64,000 bases of DNA from an uncultured Candidatus Saccharibacteria bacterium (GTDB taxonomy: Bacteria > Patescibacteriota > Minisyncoccia > Phycocordibacterales > DATGWK01): the NCBI GenBank assembly GCA_964356815.1, contig CAYHIR010000001.1:32297-96296 (forward strand), written 5' to 3'. The notes below the pieces were generated by a model that had not been told where the DNA came from, searched no databases, and saw only the letters and a program-made list of their open reading frames with translations. A program made the translations under genes and the position numbers. Shown piece after piece: positions 2,469 to 62,151 of the stretch. How positions within the stretch are numbered: position 1 is the first letter of the stretch; each line of letters starts with the position of its first letter.

Positions 2469-4283
2469 CTACCACCACAGACCTTGAATACCCAAATATT
2501 TCATTTGTGTTCGAGTGATAGATCCAAAATATCCAACGCTAGGAATGATGGCGTATTTGGCTTGGTATTCAGCCAAAGCATCTCTGGTGTAGTTTACAAA
2601 ATAGCCGGTAGCGCCGATGCGGGCCAGCTCCAAAGCTTTTTGTCCGACATTTTGGTCGATCAAAATTTTCTGTAATAGCCGGACATCTTCACCTTCCATG
2701 CCTACAGTGAGATCACGCACGAAAGATAGATTTTTTGAGTCCGAAATACCAAGCTGAGCCTGAAGATTGGCAATTCGATCCATCAAAAGATCCATAGCCT
2801 GCCACCCTTTGCCTTGTGATTCTAAATTTTTTACTCGCCCACGAAATGATGTGCCGCTGCTACCACCAGACGACTCTTGCGATGATGTTGGCTCGTCTAC
2901 GGTGGTAAAACTCCAAGTCGTAGTATCGGAAATACCAGCATAACTATTGCCGACAGAATCGTCGAAAGCGGTAGCGGCGATTTGGACATAATATTCTGTA
3001 GCATATTCCAATGAAGCTGAAGGATTTATAGTAATTGCCGACGCTCCACTTCCTGTCACCTGCCCACTTCCAACAGCAATGGCTTCAACCACCGAATCGT
3101 CGGATGATTTAAAGATCGTTATATTGCCAGTTTCAGCGTCTACATCTTCATCAAAAGTGACAATAAGATTTGCATCAATCGCCACATCGACAGCATTATC
3201 GGCAGGAGAAAAAGTTGATACCGTTGGAGCTGTGGTTTCTCCTTCAATAACCGTTACACTAAGACCGCTTTCGTTCGCCACATATACCTTTGTGCCAAGA
3301 CCAACCATAGAATATGGAGTGGCACCGACTGGCACGCTAGACACGGAATTGCCATTGGCAGTGTCTATAATGGAGACGGTATTAGCCCCAATATTTGCAA
3401 CATAAATTTTTGAGCCATTAGCTATTATTGCTTGAGGTCGATCACCAACATTTACAGTGGACACAGAATTGTTGTTTGCGGTATCTATTATAGATACAGT
3501 GTCGGCGCTATTATTTGAGACATAAACCTTTGTACTAGAAGCTATCACGATCGGACCCGGACTTCCGCTCATTCCGACAGTTATAGAAGTAGTTGCATTG
3601 CCGCTACTGGTATCAATTTGAGTAACTGTTGTACCAGTATTCGCCACAAAAACTTTTGTGCCGAGGCTAGTTATAGATGAAGGAGTTACACCCGTACCAA
3701 CGCCTAGAGAGGTCACAGAATTGTTGTTTGCGGTATCAATAATAGAAACATTTCCGTCACCCTCTGCAACATATACCTTTGTACCAAGTGAGGTCATTGC
3801 AACAGCAGAAAATCCAACATTAACGGTCTCGACCGAATTGTTGTTTGCGGTGTTGATGACGGACACAGTATTATCTCCACTGTTTAAAACATAAATCTTT
3901 GAACCGAGAACTATCTGGGCCAAGGGAGTACTTCCAACAGTTACCGTAGAGACTGAATTGTTGTTTGCGGTGTTGATGACAGAAACTGTACCATCGCCAG
4001 TATTTACTACATAAACTTTTGTGCCGAGAGCGACATTGAAATCTGGAGCACCTCCAACAGTTGCAGTAGTGATCGAATTATTGTTTTCTGTGTCGATAAT
4101 ATCCACCTCGCTCTCATCATAAATAGCCACATAGATTTTTGTACCGAGAGCGGCCAAGCCTCGTGGGCCGCTACCGGTGGTGACAGTAGCCACAACTTCA
4201 TCGGCCAAAACCACCTCTACTGGATAGTAGAGAATTGATAGTGTCAGAATGAGGGATAGAAACAGAGAGGTGATTTTTTTCAT
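2469..4283 (-). CDS. Secreted YVTN-type beta-propeller repeat protein with Ig-like domain and C-terminal putative peptidoglycan-binding domain
   Basis: 604 aa; signal peptide; about 10 repeats of GTKVYVANxGxNTVSVIDTANNNSV; Ig-like segment; C-terminal PG_binding_1-like helix bundle (LLQKILIDQNVG...ALAEYQAKYAI). Confidence 0.75.
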   Translation of the reverse strand: MKKITSLFLSLILTLSILYYPVEVVLADEVVATVTTGSGPRGLAALGTKIYVAIYDESEVDIIDTENNNSITTATVGGAPDFNVALGTKVYVVNTGDGTVSVINTANNNSVSTVTVGSTPLAQIVLGSKIYVLNSGDNTVSVINTANNNSVETVNVGFSAVAMTSLGTKVYVAEGDGNVSIIDTANNNSVTSLGVGTGVTPSSITSLGTKVFVANTGTTVTQIDTSSGNATTSITVGMSGSPGPIVIASSTKVYVSNNSADTVSIIDTANNNSVSTVNVGDRPQAIIANGSKIYVANIGANTVSIIDTANGNSVSSVPVGATPYSMVGLGTKVYVANESGLSVTVIEGETTAPTVSTFSPADNAVDVAIDANLIVTFDEDVDAETGNITIFKSSDDSVVEAIAVGSGQVTGSGASAITINPSASLEYATEYYVQIAATAFDDSVGNSYAGISDTTTWSFTTVDEPTSSQESSGGSSGTSFRGRVKNLESQGKGWQAMDLLMDRIANLQAQLGISDSKNLSFVRDLTVGMEGEDVRLLQKILIDQNVGQKALELARIGATGYFVNYTRDALAEYQAKYAIIPSVGYFGSITRTQMKYLGIQGLWW

Positions 4284-24161: not shown

Positions 24162-24235
24162 GGCGTAGTGGCGAAGTTGGTCAACGCGGCAGTCTGCAAA
24201 ACTGCTATGCGCCGGTTCGATTCCGGCCTACGCCT
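24162..24235 (+). tRNA. tRNA-Cys (anticodon GCA)
   Basis: Acceptor GGCGTAG/CTACGCC; anticodon stem GCAGT/ACTGC with loop CTGCAAA; T-arm CCGGTTCGATTCCGG. Confidence 0.8.
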
Positions 24236-24249
24236 TAGAAAGACGAAAT

Positions 24250-24333
24250 GCCCGGGTGATGAAATTGGTAAACATGCAACACTTAAAATGTTGTGAGCGA
24301 AAGCTCTTGCCGGTTCGATTCCGGCCCTGGGCA
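24250..24333 (+). tRNA. tRNA-Leu (anticodon TAA)
   Basis: Acceptor GCCCGGG/CCTGGGC; anticodon stem CAACA/TGTTG with loop CTTAAAA; long variable arm; T-arm GCCGGTTCGATTCCGGC. Confidence 0.8.
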
Positions 24334-24387
24334 CAAATTAAAAGAGCGAAGTTTGACATATATATCTAGTATATATAAGATATATGC

Positions 24388-24663
24388 ATGACTACGCAAG
24401 TAATATTCAACATCGATAAAAAGCTCAAGGACAAAGCGATGAAAAAAGCTCAGAGTGAAGGCATGCCATTTGGAGTTGTTCTTAAGCTTGCCACCAAAGC
24501 TTTCGTTGATGGCACCCTTGGAATCAGACTCGTCTCTAGCGAATCCTTCAATCCAGCGACCAGAAAAGCCGTTGACGAAATGATCAAGGATGTTAAAACG
24601 GGCAAAAACCTATCTCCTCGCCTTCGTACGGCAAAAGAAGCAGTGGCTTATCTAAGGGGCTAA
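24388..24663 (+). CDS. Type II antitoxin, RelB/DinJ-like ribbon-helix-helix family
   Basis: 91 aa; N-terminal RHH pattern (VIFNIDKKLKDKAMKKAQSEGM...VVLKLATKAFVD); AT-rich near-palindromic sequence upstream; 50 nt before the toxin gene. Confidence 0.6.
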   Translation: MTTQVIFNIDKKLKDKAMKKAQSEGMPFGVVLKLATKAFVDGTLGIRLVSSESFNPATRKAVDEMIKDVKTGKNLSPRLRTAKEAVAYLRG

Positions 24664-24713
24664 GTTGAAGATAACTTAAATATTTCTTGATCTAAGAATG
24701 GCAATGTTTTGCC

Positions 24714-25142
24714 ATGGATAACACAGAAAAAGACTTTGACAGATGGGGTTTAGAGAAAAAATATACTCATACTTATTACAGGAAAATAATTTTTTACGAA
24801 CGAGAAATTTGGTGGGCAAAAATCGGTGTGAACGTAGGAGTAGAAATTGACGGAAAACATGAGCTTTTTCTTCGGCCTGTAGTTTTATTAAAAAAATTTA
24901 ATAAACATATGGTTTTGATCGTGCCAACCACAGGCAAAGAAATACAGGATGAATATCACATTCCTGTTTCAGGAGAAGACGGTAAAATCTACCATGTTTG
25001 TATTTCCCAAATTCGAACCATTAGTACGAAGAGGTTATTTAGAAGAGTGGGTAAAACAGATAAAGAAAGTTTTACATTGCTTATTAGCGCAACCTTAGAG
25101 ATGATTAGAAAAAATACCGTGAACAACGAAACCCCGCATTAA
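24714..25142 (+). CDS. MazF/PemK-family endoribonuclease toxin
   Basis: 142 aa; REIWWAKIGVNVGVEIDGKHELFLRPVVLLKK...LIVPTTGK...ISQIRTISTKRL matches the PemK/MazF SH3-like barrel signature. Hairpin terminator at about 25127..25160. Confidence 0.7.
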   Translation: MDNTEKDFDRWGLEKKYTHTYYRKIIFYEREIWWAKIGVNVGVEIDGKHELFLRPVVLLKKFNKHMVLIVPTTGKEIQDEYHIPVSGEDGKIYHVCISQIRTISTKRLFRRVGKTDKESFTLLISATLEMIRKNTVNNETPH

Positions 25143-25283
25143 GCGGGGTTTCTCGGATGGTCATCGAACCTAGAATATTATTAGGCCGAAACCGATAATG
25201 TACTAAATACTAGCAAACCCTCGGCAAAAAACAAGTTCAAAAAGCTCGAATTTTATGCTCTGATGTGATAATCTGAAATTTCT

Positions 25284-25345
25284 CCCACCCATAGCTGTTT
25301 TGGTAGAAATCAGCAAGTTCCCACCCATAGCTGTTTTGGTAGAAT
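25284..25345 (+). repeat. Two tandem degenerate copies of the tRNA-Lys 5' half (CCCACCCATAGCTGTTTTGGTAGAA), 36–41 bp period, immediately upstream of the tRNA-Lys gene
   Basis: 25284..25308 and 25320..25345 match tRNA-Lys positions 1-24 except that CAGTTGG is replaced by GTTTTGG. Confidence 0.7.
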
Positions 25346-25361
25346 TACAGAAAATTAATAT

Positions 25362-25434
25362 CCACCCATAGCTCAGTTGGTAGAGCAGGTGCCTCTTAAG
25401 CACTTGGTCGCAGGTTCGAGTCCTGCTGGGTGGA
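25362..25434 (+). tRNA. tRNA-Lys (anticodon CTT)
   Basis: Acceptor CCACCCA/TGGGTGG; D-arm AGCTCAGTTGGTAGAGC; anticodon stem GGTGC/GCACT with loop CTCTTAA; T-arm GCAGGTTCGAGTCCTGC. Confidence 0.8.
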
Positions 25435-25589
25435 CACGAGGTAATTTGTGCTCATAATCTCAAAAAGATAAACGAGTGGCCGCCCAGAGAACATGCCTTG
25501 AGGCATGTGCGTCAGGACGAGAAAGGCTTTTCGTTATCGAGCGAGCCTTTGGCGAAGCGAGATCGAAAAGCACCTGCGGCGGTAGCCGA

Positions 25590-25607
25590 GAGTCCTGCTG
25601 GGTGGAC
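25590..25607 (+). repeat. 18-nt direct repeat of the tRNA-Lys 3' end (GAGTCCTGCTGGGTGGAC), att-site-like
   Basis: Exact copy of 25418..25435, located 155 bp downstream of the tRNA. Confidence 0.65.
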
Positions 25608-25643
25608 CGCAGAAAAAATGTTAGGATAGCGAAACACCTCAAT

Positions 25644-25725
25644 GCCGAGGTGGCGAAATTGGTAGACGCACTTGCCTTAGGAGCAAGCGGGGTAACCCAT
25701 GGAGGTTCGAGTCCTCTCCTCGGCA
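25644..25725 (+). tRNA. tRNA-Leu (anticodon TAG)
   Basis: Acceptor GCCGAGG/CCTCGGC; anticodon stem CTTGC/GCAAG with loop CTTAGGA; long variable arm; T-arm GGAGGTTCGAGTCCTCT. Confidence 0.8.
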
Positions 25726-25762
25726 CATTTAGAAACATTTAAAATAGACTTTAATAAACTTT

Positions 25763-26255: not shown

Positions 26256-27410
26256 ATGTTGTTCAATATCATAGAGACAGTGGCTCTTGCCATTGTTGTC
26301 GTCCTCATTCCGATCATCTTGTACAGAGCAAGAGAAAACAACCAACAAGCCACTTCAGTCAAAGAAGGAACCATGAAGTTCAAGGTGGCTGGTGGAGAAC
26401 TGGTCGAGATCATTCCCAATGTTCCCGGCTATGTCTTGGTGCGAGATGAAAATGGTTTCGATATTCTGATGCCTGAAGACAAGGCCAGGGCCGAAGGAGA
26501 GGAAATTCTGAGAAGCGGACCGATCGCCCGATGGTTCCAAAAAAAGTTTGGATTCTGGTGGGTTAGTATCTTCTACCCCGCTATCAAGATTCACAGATTC
26601 GAGATCTTCAAATCAAGACTCACCACCGGCAAAAAAGTTGCTGGTGATGGTGCTGAGAACAGATCTATCCTCGATGTCATAGAGGATGAAGACGAGCCGT
26701 CTCTGGTGCACGAACTTCGCTGGCGATTCCCAATGCCAGTCGGTATCGCTGGAGTCGAATCAAAAGATCGACTCCGTATCGACATCCTCCTTCTTTGTAC
26801 ATTCCAAGTGATCATGCCTGCGATACCCATCTTCATCTTCAACGCCGACTTTTTCAAAATCCTCCGCGCGGCGGTGTCAGCGGCGGTGATAAATGAGGTC
26901 AGGTCAATGCACTACACCAGCCGAGATGACGTGGAAGGCTTCGTTGACATGAAAAAAGGATCTGGTTCACCCTTCATCCTCGAAATTATCAGGGCCGTAA
27001 ACGAAGAGGGTGCTGTTGCAAGCCCTCCCGTACCAGGAGTACCCAAAGCACCTGAAGGAATCGAGCAGGGCTTAGGAATCAGGATGATCGACTGCCGTAT
27101 GGAAAACTACGCTCTGGCCGAAGCCAAAGAAATCCTTGCGGCCACTCTAGCTCTTGAAAGAGCTAGACTCGAAGGCGAAGCCGCTGTGCAAAAATCACTG
27201 AAAGATCTGGCCGTTGCCAAAAACAAAGCGGAAGGTGACGCAGCTAGAGTCAAGGCTCTGGTTGCCGAATACGGCTCACCAGAACTTGCCAGCAGACAAG
27301 TCTGGGCTGAACAACATGGAAGTTTGACTACCATTGTGAACGGTGGAGCGACCGCACTAAACATTGATGGAAAAGACAAGAAACCACTAATTCCCCCGAC
27401 CACACCCTGA
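26256..27410 (+). CDS. SPFH/band-7 (stomatin/HflC-like) domain membrane protein
   Basis: 384 aa; N-terminal TM; C-terminal Ala/Glu-rich coiled-coil typical of band-7 proteins (AEAKEILAATLALERARLEGEAAVQK...AEGDAARVKA). GC-rich. Terminator hairpin at 27430..27460. Confidence 0.6.
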   Translation: MLFNIIETVALAIVVVLIPIILYRARENNQQATSVKEGTMKFKVAGGELVEIIPNVPGYVLVRDENGFDILMPEDKARAEGEEILRSGPIARWFQKKFGFWWVSIFYPAIKIHRFEIFKSRLTTGKKVAGDGAENRSILDVIEDEDEPSLVHELRWRFPMPVGIAGVESKDRLRIDILLLCTFQVIMPAIPIFIFNADFFKILRAAVSAAVINEVRSMHYTSRDDVEGFVDMKKGSGSPFILEIIRAVNEEGAVASPPVPGVPKAPEGIEQGLGIRMIDCRMENYALAEAKEILAATLALERARLEGEAAVQKSLKDLAVAKNKAEGDAARVKALVAEYGSPELASRQVWAEQHGSLTTIVNGGATALNIDGKDKKPLIPPTTP

Positions 27411-27553: not shown

Positions 27554-28480
27554 ATGAAAAAGTTTTGGAGTTGGGTACAGTGGCTAAAGGACATTTCCTT
27601 CTCTGTCATCTTCGGAGTTCTGGCACTCGCGCTTGTCTCGGGCGCGGCATTCTTAATCTGGAGAGATGGAGCAGCGGAAGTGCCGACCTTAAAAGCGCCG
27701 ACCTTCGATTTGGATCTGGTTGCTTCGGTCATCTCGGCTTGTGTGGTTGTCGTAGCATTCATGCTCCAGACTTTTTTCTATGAGCCACCAAAAGATGAGA
27801 AGAAGTCCATTGGAAGTGACGGAGCAACCGAAGGTTCTGTTGGGCGCAGTCGACCACATCTCTATATCATCTTTGTTCCGATGGGTTGGTGGACTGTCGT
27901 TTTTCTGTCATGGCTCATGAAAGACACCGTCTTCATCGCGGAGATCTTCTGGGGTATTCTTTGGGAAGAAAATCCAAGAATGACCATCGCCACACCTTTG
28001 GTTCTTGACTTGGTTATCTTTCTCGTCAAAAAGGGCAAGAAAAACGAAAGTCCTGAAACCAAGGCAACTGGCATGGTAATTTTGGCGGTCATCATCGTCT
28101 TCTGGGCCTCGGCTTTTGGACAGAAGATTTGGAAGATTGCCGAGGAGGTCGTGCCAAGTACATGGACAGACAAAGCCTCGACTAGCATCACTGCACCAAA
28201 TCGAAAAGGTGCTGATGCGGCCGAGACTACCCCCCTCACCATCCCGATCACCACAACGGACGAGTGGGGCCCAGTCATCACTCTGACTGGCCGTGGCTAC
28301 AGTGGGTTCGACATCTTGGTCGACAACGGGCTCGCAAGAATCCGTCCCGACGAGAATCCGAGTAGAGAGTACGACGCCGGACCAGACACCAAAACAGACA
28401 TCGGTGTCACGAGAAAGGTTCGGTTCAAATCGAGTAGACCTGGAGAACCGGCTCGAGCTCGAATCGTTTTCAAGAAGTAG
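27554..28480 (+). CDS. Multi-pass membrane protein, hypothetical (possible NfeD-like partner of the SPFH protein)
   Basis: 308 aa; GGAGG RBS; at least 4 TM helices; C-terminal soluble segment; GC-rich. Terminator hairpin at about 28497..28530. Confidence 0.5.
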   Translation: MKKFWSWVQWLKDISFSVIFGVLALALVSGAAFLIWRDGAAEVPTLKAPTFDLDLVASVISACVVVVAFMLQTFFYEPPKDEKKSIGSDGATEGSVGRSRPHLYIIFVPMGWWTVVFLSWLMKDTVFIAEIFWGILWEENPRMTIATPLVLDLVIFLVKKGKKNESPETKATGMVILAVIIVFWASAFGQKIWKIAEEVVPSTWTDKASTSITAPNRKGADAAETTPLTIPITTTDEWGPVITLTGRGYSGFDILVDNGLARIRPDENPSREYDAGPDTKTDIGVTRKVRFKSSRPGEPARARIVFKK

Positions 28481-28579
28481 GAGCTTCGCACGCACAAGGG
28501 CGGCCCACACAGTGGACCGCCCTTTTTCATACACTTTTTTGCAATTTTAGCCGCGATTTTTCCGACTGCGAACCAAAAA

Positions 28580-28834
28580 CTAGAGCCCCGGCGTACCAGT
28601 GATTCCGAAAGTGTTGAGGATAACGTCAAGAATACCGTAGACCGACACCATAATAAGCATGCCGATAATCCCCCACATGATATTTAGCCGACCCTTGCTT
28701 CGCGCTTCATCAGAAGCCGCACCACTGATCATTTGGAATATGCCCCAAAGAAATACGAGTAGAGCAATAGCAAACAACAGATAAATAATCGGGTTTAATA
28801 TAACCTCGCTTATTCTATTTAGGAGTTCGAGCAT
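28580..28834 (-). CDS. TrbC/VirB2-like small two-TM protein (T4SS_pilin-type), paralog 6 of array
   Basis: 84 aa; TM1, charged loop (SGAASDEARSKGR), TM2; pattern ...GIFQMISGAASDE..IMWGIIGMLIMVSVYGI shared with the upstream paralogs. Confidence 0.6.
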   Translation of the reverse strand: MLELLNRISEVILNPIIYLLFAIALLVFLWGIFQMISGAASDEARSKGRLNIMWGIIGMLIMVSVYGILDVILNTFGITGTPGL

Positions 28835-28857
28835 CTAGTTTGACCTATCATCACCTA

Positions 28858-29211
28858 TCATCGAGGCGCCTGCGGCAAATTTGGTGTGCGAGTATCTAGA
28901 TCGAAAGCATCACCGAAGAAATTGACGATACCCCAAACAGAAACCATCACGAAGAAAGCGATGATGCCCCAAAGCATGATGTTTTTACCTTTTGTCTGAG
29001 CATCTTCATCACCAGAGTTTAGAATGAACTTTGCAAGACCCCAGAAGAAGTAAAGAAGTGCGAGGGCAATAACGATCGGTAGAAGGGTGTTGTTTATTAA
29101 ATTGAGAAAATTTCTTAAAGTGCCTTCGATGTTGTTGAGGCTTGAGGTTTGCGCAAAAGCCATAGCTGGCGAGAGAAACATAAAAGAACCGAGAATGAGT
29201 GCCTTTTTCAT
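28858..29211 (-). CDS. TrbC/VirB2-like small two-TM protein (T4SS_pilin-type) with signal peptide, paralog 5
   Basis: 117 aa; signal peptide AMAFA; LPIVIALALLYFFWGLAKFILNSGDEDAQTKGKNIMLWGIIAFFVMVSVWGIVNFF. Confidence 0.65.
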   Translation of the reverse strand: MKKALILGSFMFLSPAMAFAQTSSLNNIEGTLRNFLNLINNTLLPIVIALALLYFFWGLAKFILNSGDEDAQTKGKNIMLWGIIAFFVMVSVWGIVNFFGDAFDLDTRTPNLPQAPR

Positions 29212-29318
29212 TTATTTTGTTAAAACTTGAATAATAAAATTAATCTAGTACCCAGAAATTTTACCACACCCACCGAGCAATACAATGTCGGGTGTTAATA
29301 ATTAAGACCACTCAAAAC

Positions 29319-29702
29319 TTAATTTTGAAAAGGGCCACCACCATAGTCGTTTCTCCGATTTTGTCGCGGAACGGATTCTGGAAAAGCGGTGCCGCTATAA
29401 TCGGCATTTGGATCAAGATCGCCAGAATAAGCTGGTGGTCCACCGCGTTCTCCAAAACCAAAAGAATCAGCCAAAAAATTCACAATGCCCCACACAGACA
29501 CCATTACAAAAAGAGAAATGATGCCCCAGAGCATTATTCGCTTGCCCTCTTCAATCGCCTTCTCATCGCCCGCCACTCGAAAAATCATCCGCGCCAAACC
29601 CCACATAAAATAAAGTAGTGCCAAAGCCACCAAAATCGCAAGTAGAGTATTTATAACATCGTGACTGGCCAATATTAAGCCTTTTAAATTTGTAAACCGC
29701 AT
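29319..29702 (-). CDS. TrbC/VirB2-like small two-TM protein (T4SS_pilin-type), paralog 4
   Basis: 127 aa; LAILVALALLYFMWGLARMIFRVAGDEKAIEEGKRIMLWGIISLFVMVSVWGIVNFL; Gly/Asp-rich C-terminal tail. Confidence 0.65.
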   Translation of the reverse strand: MRFTNLKGLILASHDVINTLLAILVALALLYFMWGLARMIFRVAGDEKAIEEGKRIMLWGIISLFVMVSVWGIVNFLADSFGFGERGGPPAYSGDLDPNADYSGTAFPESVPRQNRRNDYGGGPFQN

Positions 29703-29728
29703 GTATTTTGTGTGTGTTTAAGAAAACT

Positions 29729-30151
29729 TTAAGACTGAGGAAAAATCGGCAATTGAGGCGGAATATTTAAGCGTCCACCAACAAGGTCTGAATAGAAAAA
29801 TTGCAATATGCCATATATCGAAACAGCCACAAAAAGGCCAATGATGCCCCAGAGCATAATTTGCTTCCCTTCCTCTATTGCCCCCTCATCGCCACCCACT
29901 CTAAACACAAATTTTGCCAAACCATAGAAAAATACGAGGAGCATCAATGCAATGACGACAGGTATAACGGTATTTATGAGGTCTAAGAAAAGACACACCA
30001 GATCTTGAAATTCTCTTATGCTACCAGGAGGATTTTCCGGACATAGTGGAGCATAAGCCTGAGCCGAAGAAATAAGGGGGGCTAGAGACAACAACAAAAA
30101 GAAAGTTGTAAGAACGAATATTTTTGATATTTTTTTTAGTTTTTCCTGCAT
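29729..30151 (-). CDS. TrbC/VirB2-like small two-TM protein (T4SS_pilin-type) with signal peptide, paralog 3
   Basis: The ORF-track start at 30199 overlaps the upstream gene; the internal ATG at 30151 (MQEKLKK...signal peptide SSAQA) is preferred. VIPVVIALMLLVFFYGLAKFVFRVGGDEGAIEEGKQIMLWGIIGLFVAVSIYGI. Confidence 0.6.
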   Translation of the reverse strand: MQEKLKKISKIFVLTTFFLLLSLAPLISSAQAYAPLCPENPPGSIREFQDLVCLFLDLINTVIPVVIALMLLVFFYGLAKFVFRVGGDEGAIEEGKQIMLWGIIGLFVAVSIYGILQFFYSDLVGGRLNIPPQLPIFPQS

Positions 30152-30162
30152 ATCTATAAAAA

Positions 30163-30606
30163 CTACAACCTCGGACCAACAAAATCTTCTGAGTAACACG
30201 AGTTTGGCACAATTTTACAAATGGTTGTCTGAATTGCTTTGGCGATCACCACCGAGCCAAGCAAAATCGCCGCGCCAACCACCACCCATAGAAAAGTTTG
30301 TCGCGCATCCTGAAGCTTATCAGCGTTGCCCTGTGCCGTCACAAAAAGAAAGCCTGAGTAGATGACGAAAAACACCACAATCACCACACCGAGTGGTAAG
30401 ACAATATTTTCCAAGACATAAGTGACAAACGAGAATATGCTGTTTACATTGCCTGCCAAAGGATTTCCTATTCCACTTGGTATCTGACCGGTAGAGCCAG
30501 CAGAAGGCGGTATTGTTCCCGTCGACTGAGCTAAAATTTCTACCGTAGGAATGAAAGCGGCGCTCAAAATTACTACCAAAATAATAAGCGAGACTAAATA
30601 TTTCAT
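30163..30606 (-). CDS. TrbC/VirB2-like small two-TM protein, divergent paralog 2
   Basis: 147 aa; signal peptide; TM1-AQGNADKLQDARQ-TM2 architecture; C-terminal Cys pair. Confidence 0.55.
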   Translation of the reverse strand: MKYLVSLIILVVILSAAFIPTVEILAQSTGTIPPSAGSTGQIPSGIGNPLAGNVNSIFSFVTYVLENIVLPLGVVIVVFFVIYSGFLFVTAQGNADKLQDARQTFLWVVVGAAILLGSVVIAKAIQTTICKIVPNSCYSEDFVGPRL

Positions 30607-31019
30607 AAAATAATCTTATCAGCCTTAGCCGTTTTATCAAACTGGCCCGAAGATTCGAAAACGAAAGGATTCCAATAGCTTCCGTCTTCAAGGAGCACAG
30701 AAGTGATGGTGCGAACGATGAGCCAGCCTGAGAGCACAAAAAGAAAACCGATTAAAACTTTCCAGAAAATTCCTTTAGCTTCGGAAATTTTTGATGAACT
30801 GCCCTGCGCGGTGAGCATTATGAAGCCGGCCCAGGCAAAAGCCACGGCCGCCGCAGGAATAGACACAATTATAATGAAGTCGATGATGTTGCGCGCGAGA
30901 TTTAGCAGGTCGTTGAAATCGCAATTGGGTGCACCGGCAACGCAATCCACACCGAGCGTTTGGGCTGAAACAAAAATGGGCACGATGAGCACGAAAGCGA
31001 ATATTTTAATTGTTTTCAT
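30603..31019 (-). CDS. TrbC/VirB2-like small two-TM protein, divergent paralog 1
   Basis: 138 aa; signal peptide (VSAQT); Cys pair; TM1-AQGSSSKISEAKG-TM2; 4-nt overlap with the next gene. Confidence 0.55.
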   Translation of the reverse strand: MKTIKIFAFVLIVPIFVSAQTLGVDCVAGAPNCDFNDLLNLARNIIDFIIIVSIPAAAVAFAWAGFIMLTAQGSSSKISEAKGIFWKVLIGFLFVLSGWLIVRTITSVLLEDGSYWNPFVFESSGQFDKTAKADKIIL

Positions 31020-31022
31020 TTT

Positions 31023-32303
31023 CTATTGTGAAATTTGCAGGCCAACCAAATCATTCGCGCGCGCCACGGCTTCGCTCACGGTGTCGCGGCCGCCCGTCAC
31101 ACTTTCGACCATTTCTTTAAATATCGCGGGTGTTTTTGCGGCATCTGGCACGAGCCAAGATTTCGACTGCACAGCCGCATCGTAAAACACAGAAAGATAT
31201 GGCTGATTTGGTTTCACTGCTAAAGAATCGCGGCGGACGGGCGGCAGGTTTGTGGCTTTGGAGAAGGCGTCGATCATTTGCTGGCTCGTGAGAAGGGTGG
31301 CGACGTTGTAGGCGTCAGCGACATTCAGAGAATTTTTGGAAATGGCTAAGCCAGTGATGTCGGCAATGGTGGTCACACGAGCGGCGCCTGTGGTTTGCGG
31401 AATGGCGGCCACGTCAAAGTTCAGATTTGGATTTTTGAGTCGCAAATCGGCAAGCTCGGAAGCAAAACCGAAATATGTGGCTAGGCCGCCGGAAAGAAAG
31501 AAATTTTTGGAAAGCGGCAGAGAGCGATTCCATGAGTAGTACGCTTTTAGAGGATTGGCAAATTCGGTGAAGAAAGACAGCCCGCGCTCAGCGGCTAGTG
31601 GCGGCTCGTTTATAGCACTTCGGAGCAAGCCGTCGGTGCTACCAGTGCGCACTATCGGGCTACCAGCCTGCATGAAAAGCAAGCTCACAATGTCGAAAGC
31701 ATGAGAAATATTGGCAAACTCACCGAGTGGCGCAGAACTCACCGTCACATTTAAATTGCTGTCTTTTTTGGTTATTAAAATTGAGAGATCGTAAAAGCCA
31801 CTCCAAGAGCGCGGCGGGCTAGCCAAGCCCACATTGGTAAACAAATCGCGATTCCAATACATCACCATTGGATCGACAGAAAACGGCAGAGCCAAAACGC
31901 CATCGGTAGTGAGGAAAACTTCGCCAGCTTCTATAAAATTGTCGAGAAAATCGCGCGCCGGATAATTTTCATAAGGAATGGTGAGAATTTTTGCTCGGTG
32001 TTTTATAACGCTCTCATTTGTGAGAAAGAAAATGTCTGGTCCAGTACCAAGAGCCAAAGCCTCGAGGAGTTCCTGATCGAAAGTGGCGGGATTTTTTTGG
32101 AGATAAGTAATGGAGACGGATTTGTCTTGATACAAACCAGCGCTCGCGAGCGCACCTTCAAAAACTTTCGAGTCCATCGTGCCCCACACCGTCGCCGCCG
32201 AAACATTTGCCTCTTCAGAAAGACCACCGAGGGCAAAAATCGCTACACCAACAACGATAAAAAATCCAAAAACGAAAAGGGAGACTAATTGAAATTTACT
32301 CAT
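31023..32303 (-). CDS. Membrane-anchored extracellular solute-binding protein (ABC-type SBP family 1-like), first gene of the pilin-like operon
   Basis: 426 aa from the ATG at 32303 (GGAAGG RBS); the alternative ATG at 32312 is nearly equivalent. N-terminal TM anchor; periplasmic-binding-protein fold pattern. A 12-bp perfect palindrome GTCGCGCGCGAC at 32326..32337 lies just upstream. Confidence 0.65.
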   Translation of the reverse strand: MSKFQLVSLFVFGFFIVVGVAIFALGGLSEEANVSAATVWGTMDSKVFEGALASAGLYQDKSVSITYLQKNPATFDQELLEALALGTGPDIFFLTNESVIKHRAKILTIPYENYPARDFLDNFIEAGEVFLTTDGVLALPFSVDPMVMYWNRDLFTNVGLASPPRSWSGFYDLSILITKKDSNLNVTVSSAPLGEFANISHAFDIVSLLFMQAGSPIVRTGSTDGLLRSAINEPPLAAERGLSFFTEFANPLKAYYSWNRSLPLSKNFFLSGGLATYFGFASELADLRLKNPNLNFDVAAIPQTTGAARVTTIADITGLAISKNSLNVADAYNVATLLTSQQMIDAFSKATNLPPVRRDSLAVKPNQPYLSVFYDAAVQSKSWLVPDAAKTPAIFKEMVESVTGGRDTVSEAVARANDLVGLQISQ

Positions 32304-32348
32304 GCCTTCCATATTTTTTCTTGTAGTCGCGCGCGACTTTATTTAACT

Positions 32349-32882
32349 TTATTGTACACCTTTTTTAAAAATCATGCCGTAATGATGTGTACCAGCATTT
32401 ATTCTTTTGTCCAACACAAAACCATTTTTCAGAAAAAGTTCTTTGGCTGAAGCTTCGGAAAGCAAAGTGTCGCTCGCTGGTCCGAGTACGCGCGAAGAAT
32501 CCGACCAATCTATAAGCAAAACTCTACCCTGCGGACGCAAAATTCTAAAAATTTCCGCCAAAACGACATCTCTTTTTTGTATTTGAAACAAAACGTTACT
32601 CAAAATCACTCTATCTATACCGCTACTTTTCAAACGCGAACCATTTGGCTTTTCCAAATCAACCCAAAGCGCGTCCAGATTGCGAATGTGTTGATGACGA
32701 GCCTCGCGCGCGACGCTCTCCACCACCTCTTTTTTTATTTCGAGCGCATACACATGGCCAGTCGCCCCCACCATTTTTGCCGCCGCGAATGCATAGTGAC
32801 CGATACCAGCACCGAAATCGGCCACCGTCATGCCCGGTATCAAATCTATCTGGTCCAAATTGTTCTTGGGGTTTGAGAACAT
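32349..32882 (-). CDS. Class I SAM-dependent methyltransferase
   Basis: 177 aa; motif I VADFGAGIGHYA; Methyltransf_11-like. Confidence 0.8.
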   Translation of the reverse strand: MFSNPKNNLDQIDLIPGMTVADFGAGIGHYAFAAAKMVGATGHVYALEIKKEVVESVAREARHQHIRNLDALWVDLEKPNGSRLKSSGIDRVILSNVLFQIQKRDVVLAEIFRILRPQGRVLLIDWSDSSRVLGPASDTLLSEASAKELFLKNGFVLDKRINAGTHHYGMIFKKGVQ

Positions 32883-32907
32883 TTTTGCTTAATTATTCAT
32901 TTAATTG

Positions 32908-33029
32908 TAGCACAACAGTTTTATGTGTTGACTGAGTGACTCTCGGAAGCCGACGGGCTGAGAGTGAGGCGCGATTCGAGCACCGAATCGACGCCGGTCA
33001 CGAGGGCGACACATAAAACTGTTGTGCTA
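32908..33029. repeat. Hairpin element with perfect 20-bp terminal inverted repeats (TAGCACAACAGTTTTATGTG / CACATAAAACTGTTGTGCTA) and 82-nt core; the gyrA stop codon lies in the right arm
   Basis: Direct reading. Core contains GGAAGCCGACGGGCTGAGAGTGAGG, which resembles the core of the element at 53831..53941. Confidence 0.6.
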
Positions 33030-35528
33030 GAAGCAGATCAACGAAGCAATCTTGTCTTTTTCTCTAAGTTTCATGATTCTTACTCCTTGAGTTTGTCGTC
33101 CCAAAGAAGGTATCTCTTTCACATCAAGCCTAATCACCTGACTTTTCTGCGACATAGCAACAACTTCCTCAACTTCGTCGGTAATTAGAGAAGCAGACAT
33201 TATATCGCCTGTCTTTGGAGTAACTTTTGAGGTTTTTATACCAGAGCCACCGCGCTTTTGGATTTTGTATTCGTCGAGCTCGGTCTTTTTGCCGTAACCG
33301 TTTTCGCTGATGATGAGAAGGGATGGGTTAGTGGCAGACTTAGAAGCGGCAAGAGCAGCGATGACCGTATCGCCACGACCAAGCTTCATCGCACGCACAC
33401 CGCCAGCACCACGACCCATTTCGCGAATGTCGGATTCTTTAAAGCGGATAGACTGACCCTTGGCTGTCACGATCGCCGCGCTGTCGCCTTTGTCGACAAA
33501 AGATGCAGAGACTAAGCTGTCGCCCGCCGCGAGCTTGATAGCGATGAGACCACTGCGACGCACATCGTGGAAACTCGAAGCCTTCACCTTTTTGCCCACG
33601 CCCTGCTTAGTGATCATGAGAAGTGCGAGCTCATTTGCGCGCTTGATTTCTTTTGGCATTGTCAAAACAGATGTAACTTTTTCATCGTCGGCAAGAGCGA
33701 TGTAATTTAAAATTGATTTGCCTTTTGTGGCGCGTTTACCTTCTGGCAATTCGTACATTTTTATTTGAAACACGCGGCCTTTGTTTGTGAAAAATAGAAC
33801 ATCGCTGTGAGTGTTGGCCATGAGGAGAGTCGTCACAAAATCTTCGTCTTTTGTATCGAGATCGACGACACCCACACCGCCACGGCGTTGTTTTCTAAAT
33901 TCTTCTGGATTTGTGCGCTTAATGTAGCCGCCAGCAGTGAGCACGAGGGCATTTTCTTCTTCCGGCACCAAATCTTCCACAGAAAGTACCTTAGCGCCAC
34001 CGGCTAAAACATTTGTTTTGCGAGCATCGCCGTGTTTTTCGGCAACTTCTTTAAGCTCGGTTTTGACGATGTCGGAAATTATTTTTACGCTGGCAAGAAT
34101 TTTTTTGCAGGCTTTAATAAATTCTTGAACGGCTGCGAGTTCGTCTTCGATCTTTTTGCGCTCCAAGCCAGCGAGTTTTTGCAAACGCATTTCCAAAATA
34201 GCGGTGGCTTGAATGGCAGAAAAACCAAACTCTTTCATCAAATTGCGATGGGCATCTGGTGTATCTTTCGAAGCTTTGATGAGCTTGATTATTTTATCGA
34301 TATGATCGAGGGCTTTTGAAAGACCGAGCAAAATATGCTCGCGATCTTCAGCTTTTTTTAGATCAAACTCCGTGCGACGGCGCACCACGACCTTGCGATG
34401 AGCGATAAACTCGGTGAGCATGCTCTTCAGAGAGAGTGTTTGTGGCACACCATCTACGAGGGCGACGAAATTGCAATGGAAAGTGTCTTCGAGCTGGGTG
34501 TGTTTATATAATGTATTTAAAATTTGTTGCGGATGAGTATTGTTTTTGAGATCGATGACAATGCGAATGTCTCTTGTGGACTCATCACGAAGCGCTTTAA
34601 TGCCCTCAATCTTTTTTTCGCGCACCAGATCGGCAATTTTTATAATGAGATCAGACTTATTGACACGATATGGAATAGCAGAAATAACGATTTGAAAAGT
34701 GCCCGACTTCGTCTCCACTATTTCAGCAATGCCACGCGTGACGATACCGCCACGGCCTGTTGAATAAGCGTGGGTAATATCTTTTCTATTAAAAATGACA
34801 CCGCCAGTAGGAAAATCTGGACCTTTGATGTATTCCATGAGCTCTTCCACAGCGGCTTCTGGCTTATCTATCAAAAGGTTTACCGCACCAGCCACCTCGC
34901 CCAAATTGTGCGGCGGAATATTTGAGGCCATACCAACGGCGATACCGAGCGTGCCGTTCAAGACTAAATTTGGCGCGGCAGATGGCATCACCACAGGCTC
35001 TTTGCGAGTGGAGTCATAATTTGGTCGCCAATCGACCGTTCCTTTATCAATATCACGAAGCATGTCGCCAGCAATGCGCGACATTTTTGTTTCGGTATAA
35101 CGCATTGCGGCGGCTGGATCGCCGTCTATATTGCCGAAGTTTCCTTGGCCAAGAGCGAGCGGATAGCGCGTAGAAAAATCTTGCGCCATTTTTACGAGCG
35201 AGTCGTACACGGCCACATCGCCGTGCGGATGATAGCTTCCGAGCACATCGCCCACCACCACCGCCGACTTTCGAAACTTAGCCGAAGCCGTGAGGCCGCG
35301 TTCGTGCATCGCAAAGAGAATGCGGCGATGGACAGGTTTCAAGCCGTCGCGCACATCGGGCAACGCACGCGCAGTAATAACCGACATCGCGTAGTCGAGA
35401 TACGACTCTTTCATTTCTGTCGTGATATTGCGCTCAACGACAGACTGATGAACAGGCTTTATTTCGCCGCCGCCGCTGTCGCCAGCTGAGCCTTTTGCCT
35501 CTGAGTTTTCGCCTTTTTTGCTAGCCAT
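33027..35528 (-). CDS. gyrA: DNA gyrase subunit A
   Basis: 833 aa; catalytic region (AAMRYTE), beta-pinwheel C-terminal repeats. Confidence 0.9.
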
Positions 35529-35537
35529 GAAGGGACA

Positions 35538-35888
35538 TTATAACATATTTTCTTCAGTTGAAGTAGCTGTAGAAGTAGCGTTTTCTGGCGGAGCGGAGAC
35601 CTTTTCTAAACTCTCGACGGCCGACTTCAGCTCACCAAATTGCTCCATAATAGAGGTCCAAACACGAGTCGTACTTTCACTAAATGCGGCGACGGGGCTT
35701 TTGTCTATGCCACTTACAATTTTATCCACACCAATATCTGCCGAGACTATCTCTCTAGCTGTACCACGGAAGAAAACTGTCGCCCACACACCGGCAATAA
35801 CAATAGTAACAACCGCGGAAACGCAAAGTGCCGCCAATCGACGCGTACCTTCATCTTTTTTTCGCCAATTTTCAAGCTTTTGCCACAT
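35538..35888 (-). CDS. Small membrane-anchored hypothetical protein
   Basis: 116 aa; one TM helix; upstream of gyrA in the same orientation. Confidence 0.4.
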   Translation of the reverse strand: MWQKLENWRKKDEGTRRLAALCVSAVVTIVIAGVWATVFFRGTAREIVSADIGVDKIVSGIDKSPVAAFSESTTRVWTSIMEQFGELKSAVESLEKVSAPPENATSTATSTEENML

Positions 35889-44953: not shown

Positions 44954-47281
44954 ATGAAATCTTTCGTCGCGCTTTTTTTATTCTCCTTATCGATAATTTT
45001 TGTTTTCTTTATCACAGGAGCTGACTTTTCTAAACCAAAAGTTTCCGAGGCGGCAGTCTGCACCACTATCAATCGCCCACTCTTCTTTGGTCTAAGTGAC
45101 CCACTCACTGGTGGCCAAGTTACTGAGCTCCAAAATTTTTTGAAAAGTCAGGGCTATTTTTCTGAGGCTATAACTGGCTTCTTCGGAGAAAGCACTGAGG
45201 CGGCAGTGAAAAAATTCCAACGCCGCTACACCATAGCGCTTTTTGGTGAGGTCTACAACATCGGCTTCGGAGCAACGGGTCCACTTACTCGCGCAAAAAT
45301 AAAATCGGTGAGCTGTTATGTCCCGCCGCCACCTCGACCAGCAGCAGTAGTGCCTGCAACCACACCACCGCCAGTCGCTATACCTGTTGTTCCACCACCA
45401 GTAGAGCCGCCAGTGGCGCCACCTACAGCTGGACCGCTTTCTGTCACATGTCGCCCATCACCAAGCGGAACCACGATAGGAGATTCGATAAATTGGCGCT
45501 CTACAATAGTGTCTAGCCCAAACACAACCCACACTTACAACTGGCAAGGTACAGATGGACTTACGGGCACAAATTCTAGTGCACCAAAAACATATTCAAC
45601 TGTAGGCACCAAAAGCGCTTCGGTCACGGTCGATGGCCAAACATTCACATGTACACCAAATCTAACTGTCAGCCTCGTGCCGCCTCCTACAGTTTCATGG
45701 CCATTAGCTTCTCTCTCACCCGAGCCGCTTTTCGCCACCACAGACAGCTTCAATGGTGGTGGACAGCAAAATTATGCTTATTTAACTCAACGATACGGCA
45801 TTCTTTTCAGCCCATTCGCCACAAACCAAAGCAGTGAAGTCGCTCGTTCAATGAGTGATATGGGCAAGATGCTTGAAGGTCGAAGGGTTTTTTATTCTTT
45901 AACCTCTTATCCAGACCATGCAGCAATTGCCGGCGATTCATTAGATAATTGCAAAAGTGTGGTGGACGGAATTGAAACACTGACATCTTTTCCTTGTCCA
46001 TGGTGGGATAATGGCGTCGACAAAACAAAAACAGCTTTCACCGATTTTGCCAGCGCTTTCAAAACCGCCGGCGGAGTTATGGATTTCATAATACTCGATA
46101 CTGAACGACATTTTGTAAACTGGACAATACAATCGGTGGAACACGCTGATGCCATACAAAATGATCCGCGCTTTGCTGATTTACTAACAGAGCTCCAATC
46201 GTCACTCTCTTTCTATGTAGTGCCCCCACCCGCTGAGTTTCATTTTTTTGAGAGTATTATTTCAGGCAACAATTCTCCCGCTCCTAAATGGGGGCAACAC
46301 GCAATACCCCAGCCAGAAGCCGCCGACAATTATCTAAAATGGAACGAGTGGAATTATGGACTAACTGCAGATTATATAGAAGATGCAATTTATGATCCAT
46401 TGCGATCGCAATTTGGTGGTGGACTCAAGGGTACAGACTATGGGTATCACAATCACAACCAGTCTGATGGTATAGAAGACTTCAACGGACATCGAGTAAG
46501 CGACTACGGAAACGGCGCAGTCGTTGGTACTCACCAAAGCGCGAGTCTTTATGGCGCACTTGGAAATATTTCACTCAGCAAAAATGCTTTCAACGCTTTC
46601 AAATATGATCAGAACCAAATGCGGTCGATGCGGCTTTCTTCTGGAGCACCACTTTCACCCTGGTTTGCACCACGCTCTTGGAATGGCGACAGCGCTTACA
46701 ATGTCCAAATAGATAATTCAGATTACTACGAAGAAAATGTTATACACGCCGCGCTTGTAAGCGATGAAGACGACGAGTTTATTCTTTGGAATAGTGGTGG
46801 CTCAGCCACAAACGATCAGGCCTTCCACAACGCTTTATCTGAGTTCAACATTGCCGCCGGCTACAGCAATCGCCAGCCACTCACAAACGATTTGATAGAC
46901 TTAGACGACGATGAGGTGGTATACACAGGCACACGGGTGGGCGGTTATAAAGTTTGGCGATTTACACCGAGATTAAATAGTGGTCAAAATATAACAAGCT
47001 TCATAACAAATGACGGCAACCCCGATGGTAGCGAGTCTGTGGTGTTTGATGTAAATGGCGACACTACTACTTTTCCCAACGCTTTCATCTACACTCCAAG
47101 CAGTCCAGTTTCCGATTTTGGTGCTTGGGTAATACAGACAGGGAGTGCAGGTAATCCGCAAGTGAGCTCACTCGATGGTGCAAACAAAAACAGCCAATTG
47201 GCCAATGTGTATGCCACAAAAAAATCTTTCTATAATTTTTGGTCAGTGGTGTGGAGAGAAATTCTCGAAATTTTTAAATAG
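44954..47281 (+). CDS. Large secreted protein: signal peptide, peptidoglycan-binding-like domain, Pro-rich linker, PKD-like domain, large uncharacterised C-terminal region
   Basis: 775 aa; PG_binding_1-like LTGGQVTELQNFLKSQGYF...AVKKFQ; PPPPRPAAVVPATTPPP linker; GC-rich. Confidence 0.6.
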   Translation: MKSFVALFLFSLSIIFVFFITGADFSKPKVSEAAVCTTINRPLFFGLSDPLTGGQVTELQNFLKSQGYFSEAITGFFGESTEAAVKKFQRRYTIALFGEVYNIGFGATGPLTRAKIKSVSCYVPPPPRPAAVVPATTPPPVAIPVVPPPVEPPVAPPTAGPLSVTCRPSPSGTTIGDSINWRSTIVSSPNTTHTYNWQGTDGLTGTNSSAPKTYSTVGTKSASVTVDGQTFTCTPNLTVSLVPPPTVSWPLASLSPEPLFATTDSFNGGGQQNYAYLTQRYGILFSPFATNQSSEVARSMSDMGKMLEGRRVFYSLTSYPDHAAIAGDSLDNCKSVVDGIETLTSFPCPWWDNGVDKTKTAFTDFASAFKTAGGVMDFIILDTERHFVNWTIQSVEHADAIQNDPRFADLLTELQSSLSFYVVPPPAEFHFFESIISGNNSPAPKWGQHAIPQPEAADNYLKWNEWNYGLTADYIEDAIYDPLRSQFGGGLKGTDYGYHNHNQSDGIEDFNGHRVSDYGNGAVVGTHQSASLYGALGNISLSKNAFNAFKYDQNQMRSMRLSSGAPLSPWFAPRSWNGDSAYNVQIDNSDYYEENVIHAALVSDEDDEFILWNSGGSATNDQAFHNALSEFNIAAGYSNRQPLTNDLIDLDDDEVVYTGTRVGGYKVWRFTPRLNSGQNITSFITNDGNPDGSESVVFDVNGDTTTFPNAFIYTPSSPVSDFGAWVIQTGSAGNPQVSSLDGANKNSQLANVYATKKSFYNFWSVVWREILEIFK

Positions 47282-62077: not shown

Positions 62078-62151
62078 ATTATTTTATTGTGTCTAATTAT
62101 AACCCGCGACTGACAAAACAAAAACCCGCTTTAGACGGGTCTTTGTTATTT

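Follow-up and report, generated by a model that had tools for sequence, protein, structure and literature searches.

What does a bacterium build from a gene for a membrane-anchored solute-binding protein (SBP) that is followed by six genes for small two-helix membrane proteins? The question is raised by a locus in a 64-kb stretch of chromosome (64,000 nucleotides of contig CAYHIR010000001.1, hereafter the window), where the listing of open reading frames (ORFs) places seven co-oriented ORFs on the minus strand between positions 28580 and 32312: one SBP_bac_1 gene and then the six small genes, numbered here P1 to P6 in the order in which they follow the SBP gene. All seven ORFs claimed in an earlier note on this DNA are present, and its mention of the candidate phyla radiation (CPR) agrees with the SBP homologs and related genome records, from which the window is judged to be part of a Patescibacteria/CPR chromosome. 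As set out below, comparative and structural evidence points, with a confidence that we would call evenly balanced, to a heteromeric complex of VirB2-like subunits in which P1 is the partner of the SBP; confidence is lower for the formation of a pilus and for the roles of individual subunits.

The six small proteins belong to T4SS_pilin (PF18895), a family related to the TrbC/VirB2 pilins of type IV secretion systems (T4SSs). Against a gathering cut-off of 26.6 bits for PF18895, the scores are 50.7 bits for P5, 44.9 for P4, 32.3 for P6, 28.0 for P1 and 27.8 for P3. No window protein attains the cut-off of PF04956 (TrbC; 27.9 bits), for which P5 scores 17.1 bits, and this cut-off is passed by some orthologs, such as the first array gene of the related locus L019 (32.1 bits). 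Among 141 related array proteins, 139 match PF18895 and 34 match TrbC at E-values of 0.01 or better, with a best TrbC value of 5e-9. The NCBIfam matches of the small proteins all fell below threshold and were to the ‘Mbov_0395 pilin-like conjugal transfer protein' of a Mycoplasma integrative conjugative element. The family named in the earlier note is therefore borne out by five of the six proteins and by nearly all of their relatives; of the two Pfam models proposed for checking it, PF18895 recovers P1 and P3 to P6 and misses P2, and PF04956 recovers none of the six.

Hydropathy profiles show two hydrophobic helices in each of the six proteins and an N-terminal signal-peptide-like segment in P1, P2, P3 and P5 (ending AFA-Q in P5) and none in P4 and P6, in agreement with the proposed architecture of an optional signal peptide and two helices. 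An AlphaFold2 model of P1 places the helices at residues 35-70 and 75-110 with a pLDDT of about 90. Cysteine pairs (C26/C33 in P1, C130/C137 in P2 and C37/C53 in the 140-residue form of P3) are found only in predicted extracytoplasmic segments, and natural fusions of the SBP to a subunit, described below, fit one topology only, with the SBP outside, helix 1 running from outside to inside, the loop inside and helix 2 running from inside to outside. Because the cysteine pairs are confined to outside segments and the fusions are topologically consistent, we infer that the subunits have the topology of VirB2, with both termini outside and a short charged loop inside. In fold searches the hairpin was not separable from generic helical hairpins; a profile of the pilin alignment run against the PDB sequences found no solved pilin, returning only chance-level helices of G-protein-coupled receptors (E at least 0.2).

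Are the six genes interchangeable copies, or distinct parts of a set? On core alignment columns, pairs of window proteins are 12-62% identical, with a mean of about 30%. P3, P4 and P5 are mutually 48-62% identical (62% for P4 and P5, 48-54% for P3 against either), P6 is 29-37% identical to these three, and P1 and P2 are 12-26% identical to all others. These values correct the earlier division into four clear paralogs and two divergent proteins with cysteine pairs. Related arrays were gathered by scanning a genome collection with the SBP alignment, which yielded 80 loci, of which the 63 with at least 3.5 kb downstream provided the array statistics; array members were detected by a profile of the six window proteins, and gene starts are longest-ORF calls. 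The related genome records include Paceibacterota, Taylor-, Zambryski-, Kaiser- and Wolfebacteria. An array lies directly 3' of the SBP gene in all 63 loci, comprises five to seven genes in 58 of them (mode six) and has a median intergenic gap of 12 bp. Throughout the 63 loci the order is fixed: SBP, a P1-type gene, a P2-type gene, two to five middle genes (P3/P4/P5-like, their number varying between genomes), a P5-type gene and a short P6-type gene. The best window match is P1 at the first position in 56 of 58 arrays, P2 at the second in 55, P5 at the penultimate in 54 and P6 at the last in 52. At least two cysteines occur in 95% of P1-type proteins, and P6-type proteins have a median length of 92 residues.

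Proteins at the same position are 0.34-0.40 identical across genomes, as compared with a median of 0.24 between positions within one genome, and both the order and the positional orthologs persist where the SBPs are only 40-55% identical. In three relatives with SBP identities of 47-55%, the genes run in the same order (GyrA, a methyltransferase, SBP, six small genes, convergent genes), and four to six of the six small genes have precomputed Pfam matches to PF18895 or TrbC. By these comparisons the paralogs are ancient positional orthologs and not products of recent amplification. Recent amplification or gene conversion was considered as an origin of the array and rejected, since the highest paralog identity is 62% and the positional orthologs are conserved.

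The bearing of selection on this question was assessed from one genome pair, the window and the related locus L085, whose SBP is 93% identical (Table 1). All six array genes are under purifying selection in this pair (dN/dS 0.03-0.20). For pooled hairpin cores dN is 0.025 and omega 0.03, and for pooled exposed termini, some segments of which are saturated in dS, dN is 0.21 and omega 0.14. The changes cluster in the mature N- and C-terminal segments, and fast termini are limited to P2, P3, P4 and P5, in which they are 36-77% identical to their L085 counterparts as against 88-98% for the hairpins; individual hairpin identities include 99% for the core of P1, 88% for P2 and 92% for P5, whose exposed termini are 36% identical. 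Termini exposed at the surface of a core held fixed by packing should evolve in this way, and the pattern is not evidence of positive selection.

The earlier note had suggested an amplified array of variant pilin subunits; as a model, this makes the locus a series of interchangeable variants that serve antigenic or host-range variation of a surface filament. The rapid divergence of the P2-P5 termini and the variable number of middle-type genes would suit this idea, which has been raised for Patescibacteria and Bartonella in general (PMC12102498). It is opposed by the fixed order with positional orthologs across genomes whose SBPs have diverged to 40-55% identity; by P1, P2 and P6, which are distinct conserved types with differing leaders and cysteine patterns; by dN/dS values that are far under 1 in each of the genes and reach only 0.14 in the pooled termini; and by the lack of any sign of recent duplication in the window. 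Neither antigenic diversification nor diversifying selection among the paralogs is therefore upheld, and we regard the variant model as very improbable.

If the small proteins are distinct parts, what is the SBP doing at their head? The protein matches PF01547 (SBP_bac_1) with 48.7 bits against a cut-off of 26 bits, and hydropathy gives it one N-terminal transmembrane helix (residues 9-27); it contains no cysteine. Its AlphaFold2 model has a two-lobe fold with a pLDDT of 92.2, and a Foldseek search with this model ranks oligosaccharide-binding proteins first (2zyo, with TM-scores of 0.73/0.81, followed by 4r9g, 5f7v and 7bvt; E 1e-21). The structural matches comprise cyclo/maltodextrin-, mannooligosaccharide- and other oligosaccharide-binding proteins, with TM-scores of 0.73-0.81 at about 17% identity, and the closest solved relative by sequence is the mannobiose-binding protein 4r9f (profile match, E 1.7e-18). 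The family alignment has 33 invariant columns rich in Trp, Tyr, Phe, Asn and Arg, as in sugar-binding proteins. A membrane-anchored SBP-like protein, as first described, is thus supported by the Pfam match, the N-terminal helix and the confident MalE-like model. Homologs number in the thousands (at least 1059 clusters at 50% identity, E 1e-30 or better), all from Patescibacteria-type sources, and databases name them Patescibacteria or Paceibacterota proteins and label them ABC-type (ATP-binding cassette) sugar or glycerol-3-phosphate SBPs.

As an observation in its own right, the N terminus of the SBP carries the conserved motif MSKFQ (residues 4-8, 32288-32303) on the cytoplasmic face, directly before the membrane anchor; all of 14 homologs share K6, F7 and Q8, and in a set of 67 homologs F7 and Q8 are at least 90% conserved. 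A class III signal peptide, as in a true bindosome, was considered for this segment and rejected: the N terminus reads M(EG)MSKFQ followed by a transmembrane helix, with no G-F...E motif.

The pairing of SBP and array, noted earlier as unusual, proves to be real and stronger than had been claimed, being conserved, reciprocal and backed by gene fusions. A reverse scan of metagenome contigs, seeded with P5-type sequences, gave 35 loci with room for an SBP gene, and in 34 of these an SBP homolog immediately precedes the first array gene. The SBP and P1 genes are a few bases apart or overlap, in the window as in relatives. In locus L090 the place of GyrA is taken by GroES/EL, LemA and a TPM-domain gene, and the block of methyltransferase, SBP and array is intact. 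Natural SBP::P1 fusions, each consisting of a full SBP, a linker, the P1 cysteine motif and the two-helix hairpin, occur in L067/P0132 (568 residues), L075/P0133 (560 residues), P0135 (partial), P0221 (597 residues, 46% identical to P0132), P0252 (586 residues) and P0255 (579 residues). These proteins are 39-71% identical to one another and form several clusters sharing under 50% identity; they are not single sequencing errors, since P0132 alone represents eight member sequences. A further apparent fusion, in L073, was an artefact of a masked run of N and was discarded. Modules other than an SBP also occur at the first position. The first array protein of L056 (4722-6347) is a fusion of a subtilase (Peptidase_S8) to the pilin, with both domains above their Pfam cut-offs, that of L076 (1445-2194) has an N-terminal Dickkopf-like Cys-rich module, and that of L023 (8105-8959) has a long low-complexity extension rich in Ser, Gln and Pro. 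Because these three loci carry other modules there, the comparison suggests that the first-position subunit may be a general carrier, or display anchor, of extracellular domains.

The same evidence bears on a simpler explanation, in which the SBP serves an ordinary ABC importer whose transporter genes are unlinked, and stands next to the array through synteny by descent or through common regulation, with no physical partnership. The complete and confident MalE-like fold and the database names of the homologs are what such a protein would have, and gyrA and the methyltransferase gene are conserved neighbours too, a sign of strong general synteny in the lineage. However, no ORF matches an ABC permease or ATPase in the 64-kb window or in the loci L002-L004 and L090; the start and stop codons of SBP and P1 overlap or lie a few bases apart; the block outlasts the loss of gyrA synteny in L090; the association is reciprocal; and fusions of which several are less than 50% identical to one another are hard to explain unless the two proteins associate physically. 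An importer SBP that is merely a neighbour of the array is in our judgement quite improbable.

Physical association could also serve a structure that has no part in secretion. In a platform resembling the bindosome and independent of any T4SS, the six proteins would be a scaffold spanning the membrane or the cell wall that holds the SBP on a monoderm, S-layer-bearing cell, the transporter being encoded elsewhere. This explanation has the precedent of Sulfolobus, in which sugar-binding proteins need the small pilin-like Bas proteins if they are to assemble functionally at the surface (PMC3047682); it accommodates the lack of T4SS genes near the array in the window and in annotated relatives, the fusion of SBP to P1 in several lineages and the presence of an SBP at all, a hallmark of import systems, and six subunits with two transmembrane helices each would give a 12-helix membrane assembly. 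It is less easily reconciled with subunits that are related to VirB2/TrbC and not to type IV pilins, with an SBP that has MSKFQ and a transmembrane helix in place of a class III signal peptide, with the lack of a linked Bas-like ATPase or platform gene, and with the Saccharimonadia, in which the same family sits within a T4SS locus. We consider such a platform unlikely.

The arrangement that we favour is a heteromeric VirB2-like assembly with P1 as the partner of the SBP. The locus is a conserved chromosomal operon of Paceibacteria-type Patescibacteria that runs from the S-adenosylmethionine (SAM)-dependent methyltransferase gene through the membrane-anchored MalE-like SBP, P1, P2 and the middle subunits to a promoter-like spacer, P5 and P6, and so encodes differentiated VirB2/TrbC-like subunits along with an extracytoplasmic module for ligand binding. 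The six subunits would come together in a single heteromeric structure at the surface, either a pilus or a stalk resembling one, as part of a Patescibacterial T4SS whose other genes lie elsewhere. P5, which has the highest family score and whose gene follows a promoter-like spacer of its own, is on these grounds proposed as the abundant shaft or bulk subunit, and P1, P2 and P6 would be specialised subunits of low copy number. The task of P1 would be to keep the SBP (in some genomes a protease or other domain) at the cell surface or on the filament, and the SBP would recognise an oligosaccharide-type ligand, host-derived or environmental, for attachment or capture. In its fullest form this becomes a previously undescribed organelle of uptake or attachment, in which a VirB2-like filament or stalk whose P1 subunit bears an oligosaccharide-binding domain or protease would let the T4SS capture substrate at the host surface and not act as an exporter; that specific function should be taken as distinctly unlikely.

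The spacer between P4 and P5 (Table 1) bears on the role proposed for P5. The spacer before the penultimate, P5-type gene has a median length of 100 bp (interquartile range 82-110, 59 arrays) as against 7-17 bp elsewhere in the arrays, and related P5 spacers are AT-rich, averaging 26% GC. Three motifs, among them -10-like and extended -10 boxes, are more frequent in them than in shuffled sequences: TAnAAT in 37 of 49 (24.1 +/- 3.2 in shuffles), TGnTAnnnT in 26 of 49 (12.5 +/- 3.0) and GGTC[GT] in 23 of 49 (2.9 +/- 1.5). We take the spacer as a candidate internal promoter that would raise the expression of P5 and P6, which would fit P5 as major subunit. GGTC[GT] is mostly placed 30-55 nt before the start codon; the GGTCT of the window, 98 nt before it, is atypical.

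Several observations weigh against the assembly as we propose it. P2 falls below both Pfam cut-offs, with 17.5 bits for PF18895 and 15.7 bits for TrbC; it scores 144 bits against a profile of the window's own six proteins and 99.8 bits against that of the 141 related array proteins (A7). No ORF in the 64-kb window matches VirB4, VirD4 or VirB6, as the earlier note had stated, and the four relatives with Pfam annotation, L002-L004 and L090, have no VirB4, VirB6 or VirD4 gene in the 10 kb to either side of the array; no T4SS ATPase is among the best 25 of 56 Pfam families matched by 40 representative large ORFs from about 150 related loci. As far as these sequences go, family homology is the sole link of the array to a T4SS. 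Since gyrA stands beside the block in 61 of 64 relatives, part of the adjacency of SBP and array is inherited synteny. The fusions are rare, at about 4 of 120 best hits, and the roles of P5 as major subunit and P1 as adaptor are ones that we infer.

Table 1. Features of the window, with amino-acid identity and dN/dS of the SBP and array genes relative to locus L085.
Feature	Coordinates	Strand	Description	Identity to L085	dN/dS
Methyltransferase	32349..32882	-	177 aa; class I, SAM-dependent; Pfam Methyltransf_31/11/25
Palindrome	32325-32338	.	14 bp, perfect, AGTCGCGCGCGACT; in the 36-bp methyltransferase-SBP gap
Second palindrome	32140-32153		14 bp, perfect, GC-rich, GCGCTCGCGAGCGC; within the SBP coding sequence, at a distance of 185 bp from the first palindrome
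SBP	31023-32312	-	429 aa; alternative start 32303	0.93	0.05
P1	30603-31019	-	138 aa; signal peptide, conserved C-x6-C segment, two-helix hairpin	0.94	0.07
P2	30163-30606	-	147 aa; signal peptide, long Gly/Ser/Pro-rich N-terminal segment, hairpin, C-terminal Cys pair	0.67	0.08
P3	29729-30199	-	156 aa from GTG (longest ORF); middle-type	0.80	0.11
P4	29319-29702	-	127 aa; middle-type, no signal peptide, long C-terminal tail	0.87	0.10
P4-P5 spacer	29212..29318	-	107 bp; extended -10-like box TGGTAAAAT
P5	28858-29211	-	117 aa; most canonical member	0.74	0.20
P6	28580-28834	-	84 aa; leaderless, last gene	0.96	0.03
Convergent gene 1	26256-27410	+	384 aa; fast-evolving membrane protein, 3' of P6
Convergent gene 2	27554-28480	+	308 aa; fast-evolving membrane protein, 3' of P6
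PemK/MazF-type toxin	24714-25142		follows a 91-aa ORF without family match (region 24388-25142)
Surface protein 1	2469-4283		604 aa, predicted; beta-propeller, Big_5, PG_binding_1
Surface protein 2	44954-47281		775 aa, predicted; PG_binding_1, weak PKD match
S74 protein	62600-63988		462 aa; Peptidase_S74 domain; adjoins RNase P RNA gene (62151-62575)

The genes of the locus are closely packed, with junctions from SBP to P6 of 3 bp, a 4-bp overlap (P1/P2), about 11 bp, 26 bp, 107 bp (P4-P5) and 23 bp; the tight spacing reported earlier (gaps of 3-26 bp or overlaps) applies to every junction except P4-P5. For P3 the longest ORF opens with GTG at 30199, and the likelier start is ATG 30151 (29729..30151, 140 residues, with a typical leader). 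Proteins identical to P1 and to the SBP recur on Hainich groundwater metagenome contigs. A profile search of the 64 kb found no further PF18895-like ORF, and Rfam and tRNA scans gave no match between 28 and 33 kb.

Upstream, 64 of 77 related loci have a homolog of the methyltransferase gene immediately before the SBP gene and in the same orientation, 18 of them with a 4-nt overlap, and this arrangement makes it probably the first gene of the operon, co-transcribed with the rest; that the enzyme might modify the Lys/Glu-rich cytoplasmic loop of the subunits is speculative. In the gap between methyltransferase and SBP the earlier note had seen a perfect 12-bp palindrome (32326..32337) as a candidate operator. 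The palindrome is indeed perfect, and its actual length is 14 bp. In the window, perfect palindromes of 12 bp number 16, as against 16.1 +/- 3.5 in shuffles, and those of 14 bp number 8, as against 3.8 +/- 2.0. L085 retains the palindrome, but together with flanking DNA that is itself almost the same as in the window, and in many of the relatives, more distant ones included, it would not fit, the two genes being 0-12 bp apart or overlapping by 4 nt. An operator was accordingly rejected, the counts being at chance level and the palindrome being kept only where the whole intergenic region is nearly identical; it is probably a non-functional product of chance. A scan for promoters and terminators over 28000-35800 gave counts equal to the shuffle expectation and nothing usable at the 5' end of the operon. 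The second 14-bp palindrome makes two of the window's eight within 200 bp, for which the rough chance probability is about 0.18, probably a coincidence.

The rest of the window is core chromosome, with genes for IF2, RbfA, ClpB, TopA, GyrA, LepA, MurJ, S1, FtsA/Z, DprA and ParB, several aminoacyl-tRNA synthetases, 12 tRNAs and the RNase P RNA. The two genes that converge on the array have counterparts at the same position in relatives, in some of which (L003, L121) an SPFH/Band_7 domain is found, and by sequence they can seldom be matched to the window's own two (at E 1e-5, in 0 of 52 and 9 of 52 loci). NCBIfam gave generic matches or none for both of these genes and for the methyltransferase. 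The PemK/MazF-type toxin gene and the 91-residue ORF before it, which may encode its antitoxin, sit within a cluster of tRNA genes (Cys, Leu, Lys, Leu; 24162-25726). Peptidase_S74, a domain that serves endosialidase and tail-fibre proteins as an intramolecular chaperone, is characteristic of phage tail fibres, and its presence on a small chromosome is unusual. The two predicted surface proteins with peptidoglycan-binding domains may act in host contact or in the cell wall.

A large part of bacterial diversity belongs to the Patescibacteria, which live on other microbes. For one large lineage of Paceibacteria, the present comparison describes the pilin-like set as an ancient, ordered kit of several subunits and not a stock of interchangeable variants, one that is tied by operon structure and repeated fusion to a sugar-binding-type module, sometimes to other extracellular domains, and that lies away from T4SS motor genes. 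If the capture reading is true, the essential T4SS of these episymbionts would gain a concrete role in acquiring host material, and the SBP would be a candidate adhesin or receptor, a component that was reported as missing in surveys of these secretion systems. If the SBP is merely a neighbour, the finding reduces to one more pilin array of a published class.

How new is the locus? That tandem pilin arrays have already been published for Patescibacteria was overlooked in the earlier note. In the one genetically tractable species of the group, both the T4SS and its VirB2-like array are essential. In Southlakia epibionticum, a six-gene PF18895 array (SEML1_0014-0019) lies inside the essential T4SS locus (Wang 2023; PMC10633639). 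A survey counted 441 arrays of 2-11 pilin genes in 383 Patescibacteria assemblies, with a mean identity between array members of 25% and a maximum of 54%, and found pilin genes near virB4 in 1135 of 1948 assemblies and many others away from it (Quiñonero-Coronel 2025; PMC12102498). Its definition of an array, at least two PF18895/PF04956 genes in tandem or with one non-pilin gene between them in a Patescibacteria genome, covers the six tandem and divergent genes of the window, and the array itself is a member of this published class and not new. A 2025 review describes Patescibacterial systems as the only monoderm T4SSs with pilins (PMC12857230). No SBP is mentioned in any of these three papers (PMC10633639, PMC12102498 and PMC12857230), and no searchable paper joins Patescibacteria, VirB2 and solute binding. 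As far as the searchable literature shows, the new elements are the ordered architecture, its detachment from T4SS genes, the co-operonic SBP and methyltransferase, the recurrent SBP::P1 fusions, the fusion of a protease to the first subunit and the internal promoter-like spacer.

Compared with the published Patescibacterial arrays, the window array shares the combination of PF18895 with weaker PF04956 similarity, the tandem arrangement (six genes in S. epibionticum, mode six here), low identity between paralogs and a chromosomal location with no relaxase context. It differs in lying outside a T4SS gene cluster, in being headed by an SBP_bac_1 gene and usually a SAM methyltransferase gene, and in its fixed order from P1 and P2 to P5 and P6 with a promoter-like spacer; no SBP is listed within the S. 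epibionticum array. With the TrbC/VirB2/TraA pilins (PF04956) of diderm T4SSs, the subunits have in common their small size, signal peptide, two helices, short loop and predicted outside termini, and a quarter of the related array proteins match that family. In contrast, the window proteins fall short of its cut-off, match no solved pilin by sequence and come from a monoderm host, and there are six differentiated paralogs here where those systems have one major pilin, with no adjoining VirB machinery. Tandem, diverged VirB2 paralogs are also known from the Trw T4SS of Bartonella (trwL/trwJ, VirB2/VirB5), where they are thought to provide variant attachment pili, an analogy drawn in PMC12102498; those are lineage-specific amplifications within a T4SS operon, whereas the genes of the window are ancient positional orthologs, away from T4SS genes and coupled to an SBP.

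The likeness to the Sulfolobus bindosome (Bas) is one of functional analogy only, in that sugar-binding proteins of the ABC-SBP type there need small pilin-like membrane proteins to be displayed on a cell with no outer membrane (PMC3047682). The Bas proteins and their SBPs carry class III signal peptides and depend on a type IV pilus ATPase and platform (BasE, BasF), whereas the small proteins of the window are of the VirB2 type (PF18895), their SBP has a plain transmembrane anchor and no assembly ATPase is linked. Finally, the SBP itself resembles the cluster-B/MalE-like oligosaccharide-binding proteins of ABC importers (2ZYO and 4R9F/4R9G, CpMnBP1) in its two-lobe fold, in the structural and profile scores given above and in the many invariant aromatic, Asn, Asp and Arg residues of its family. 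It departs from them in its low sequence identity, in having no linked permease or ATPase, in its transmembrane anchor with MSKFQ and, in some genomes, in its fusions to a VirB2-like hairpin.

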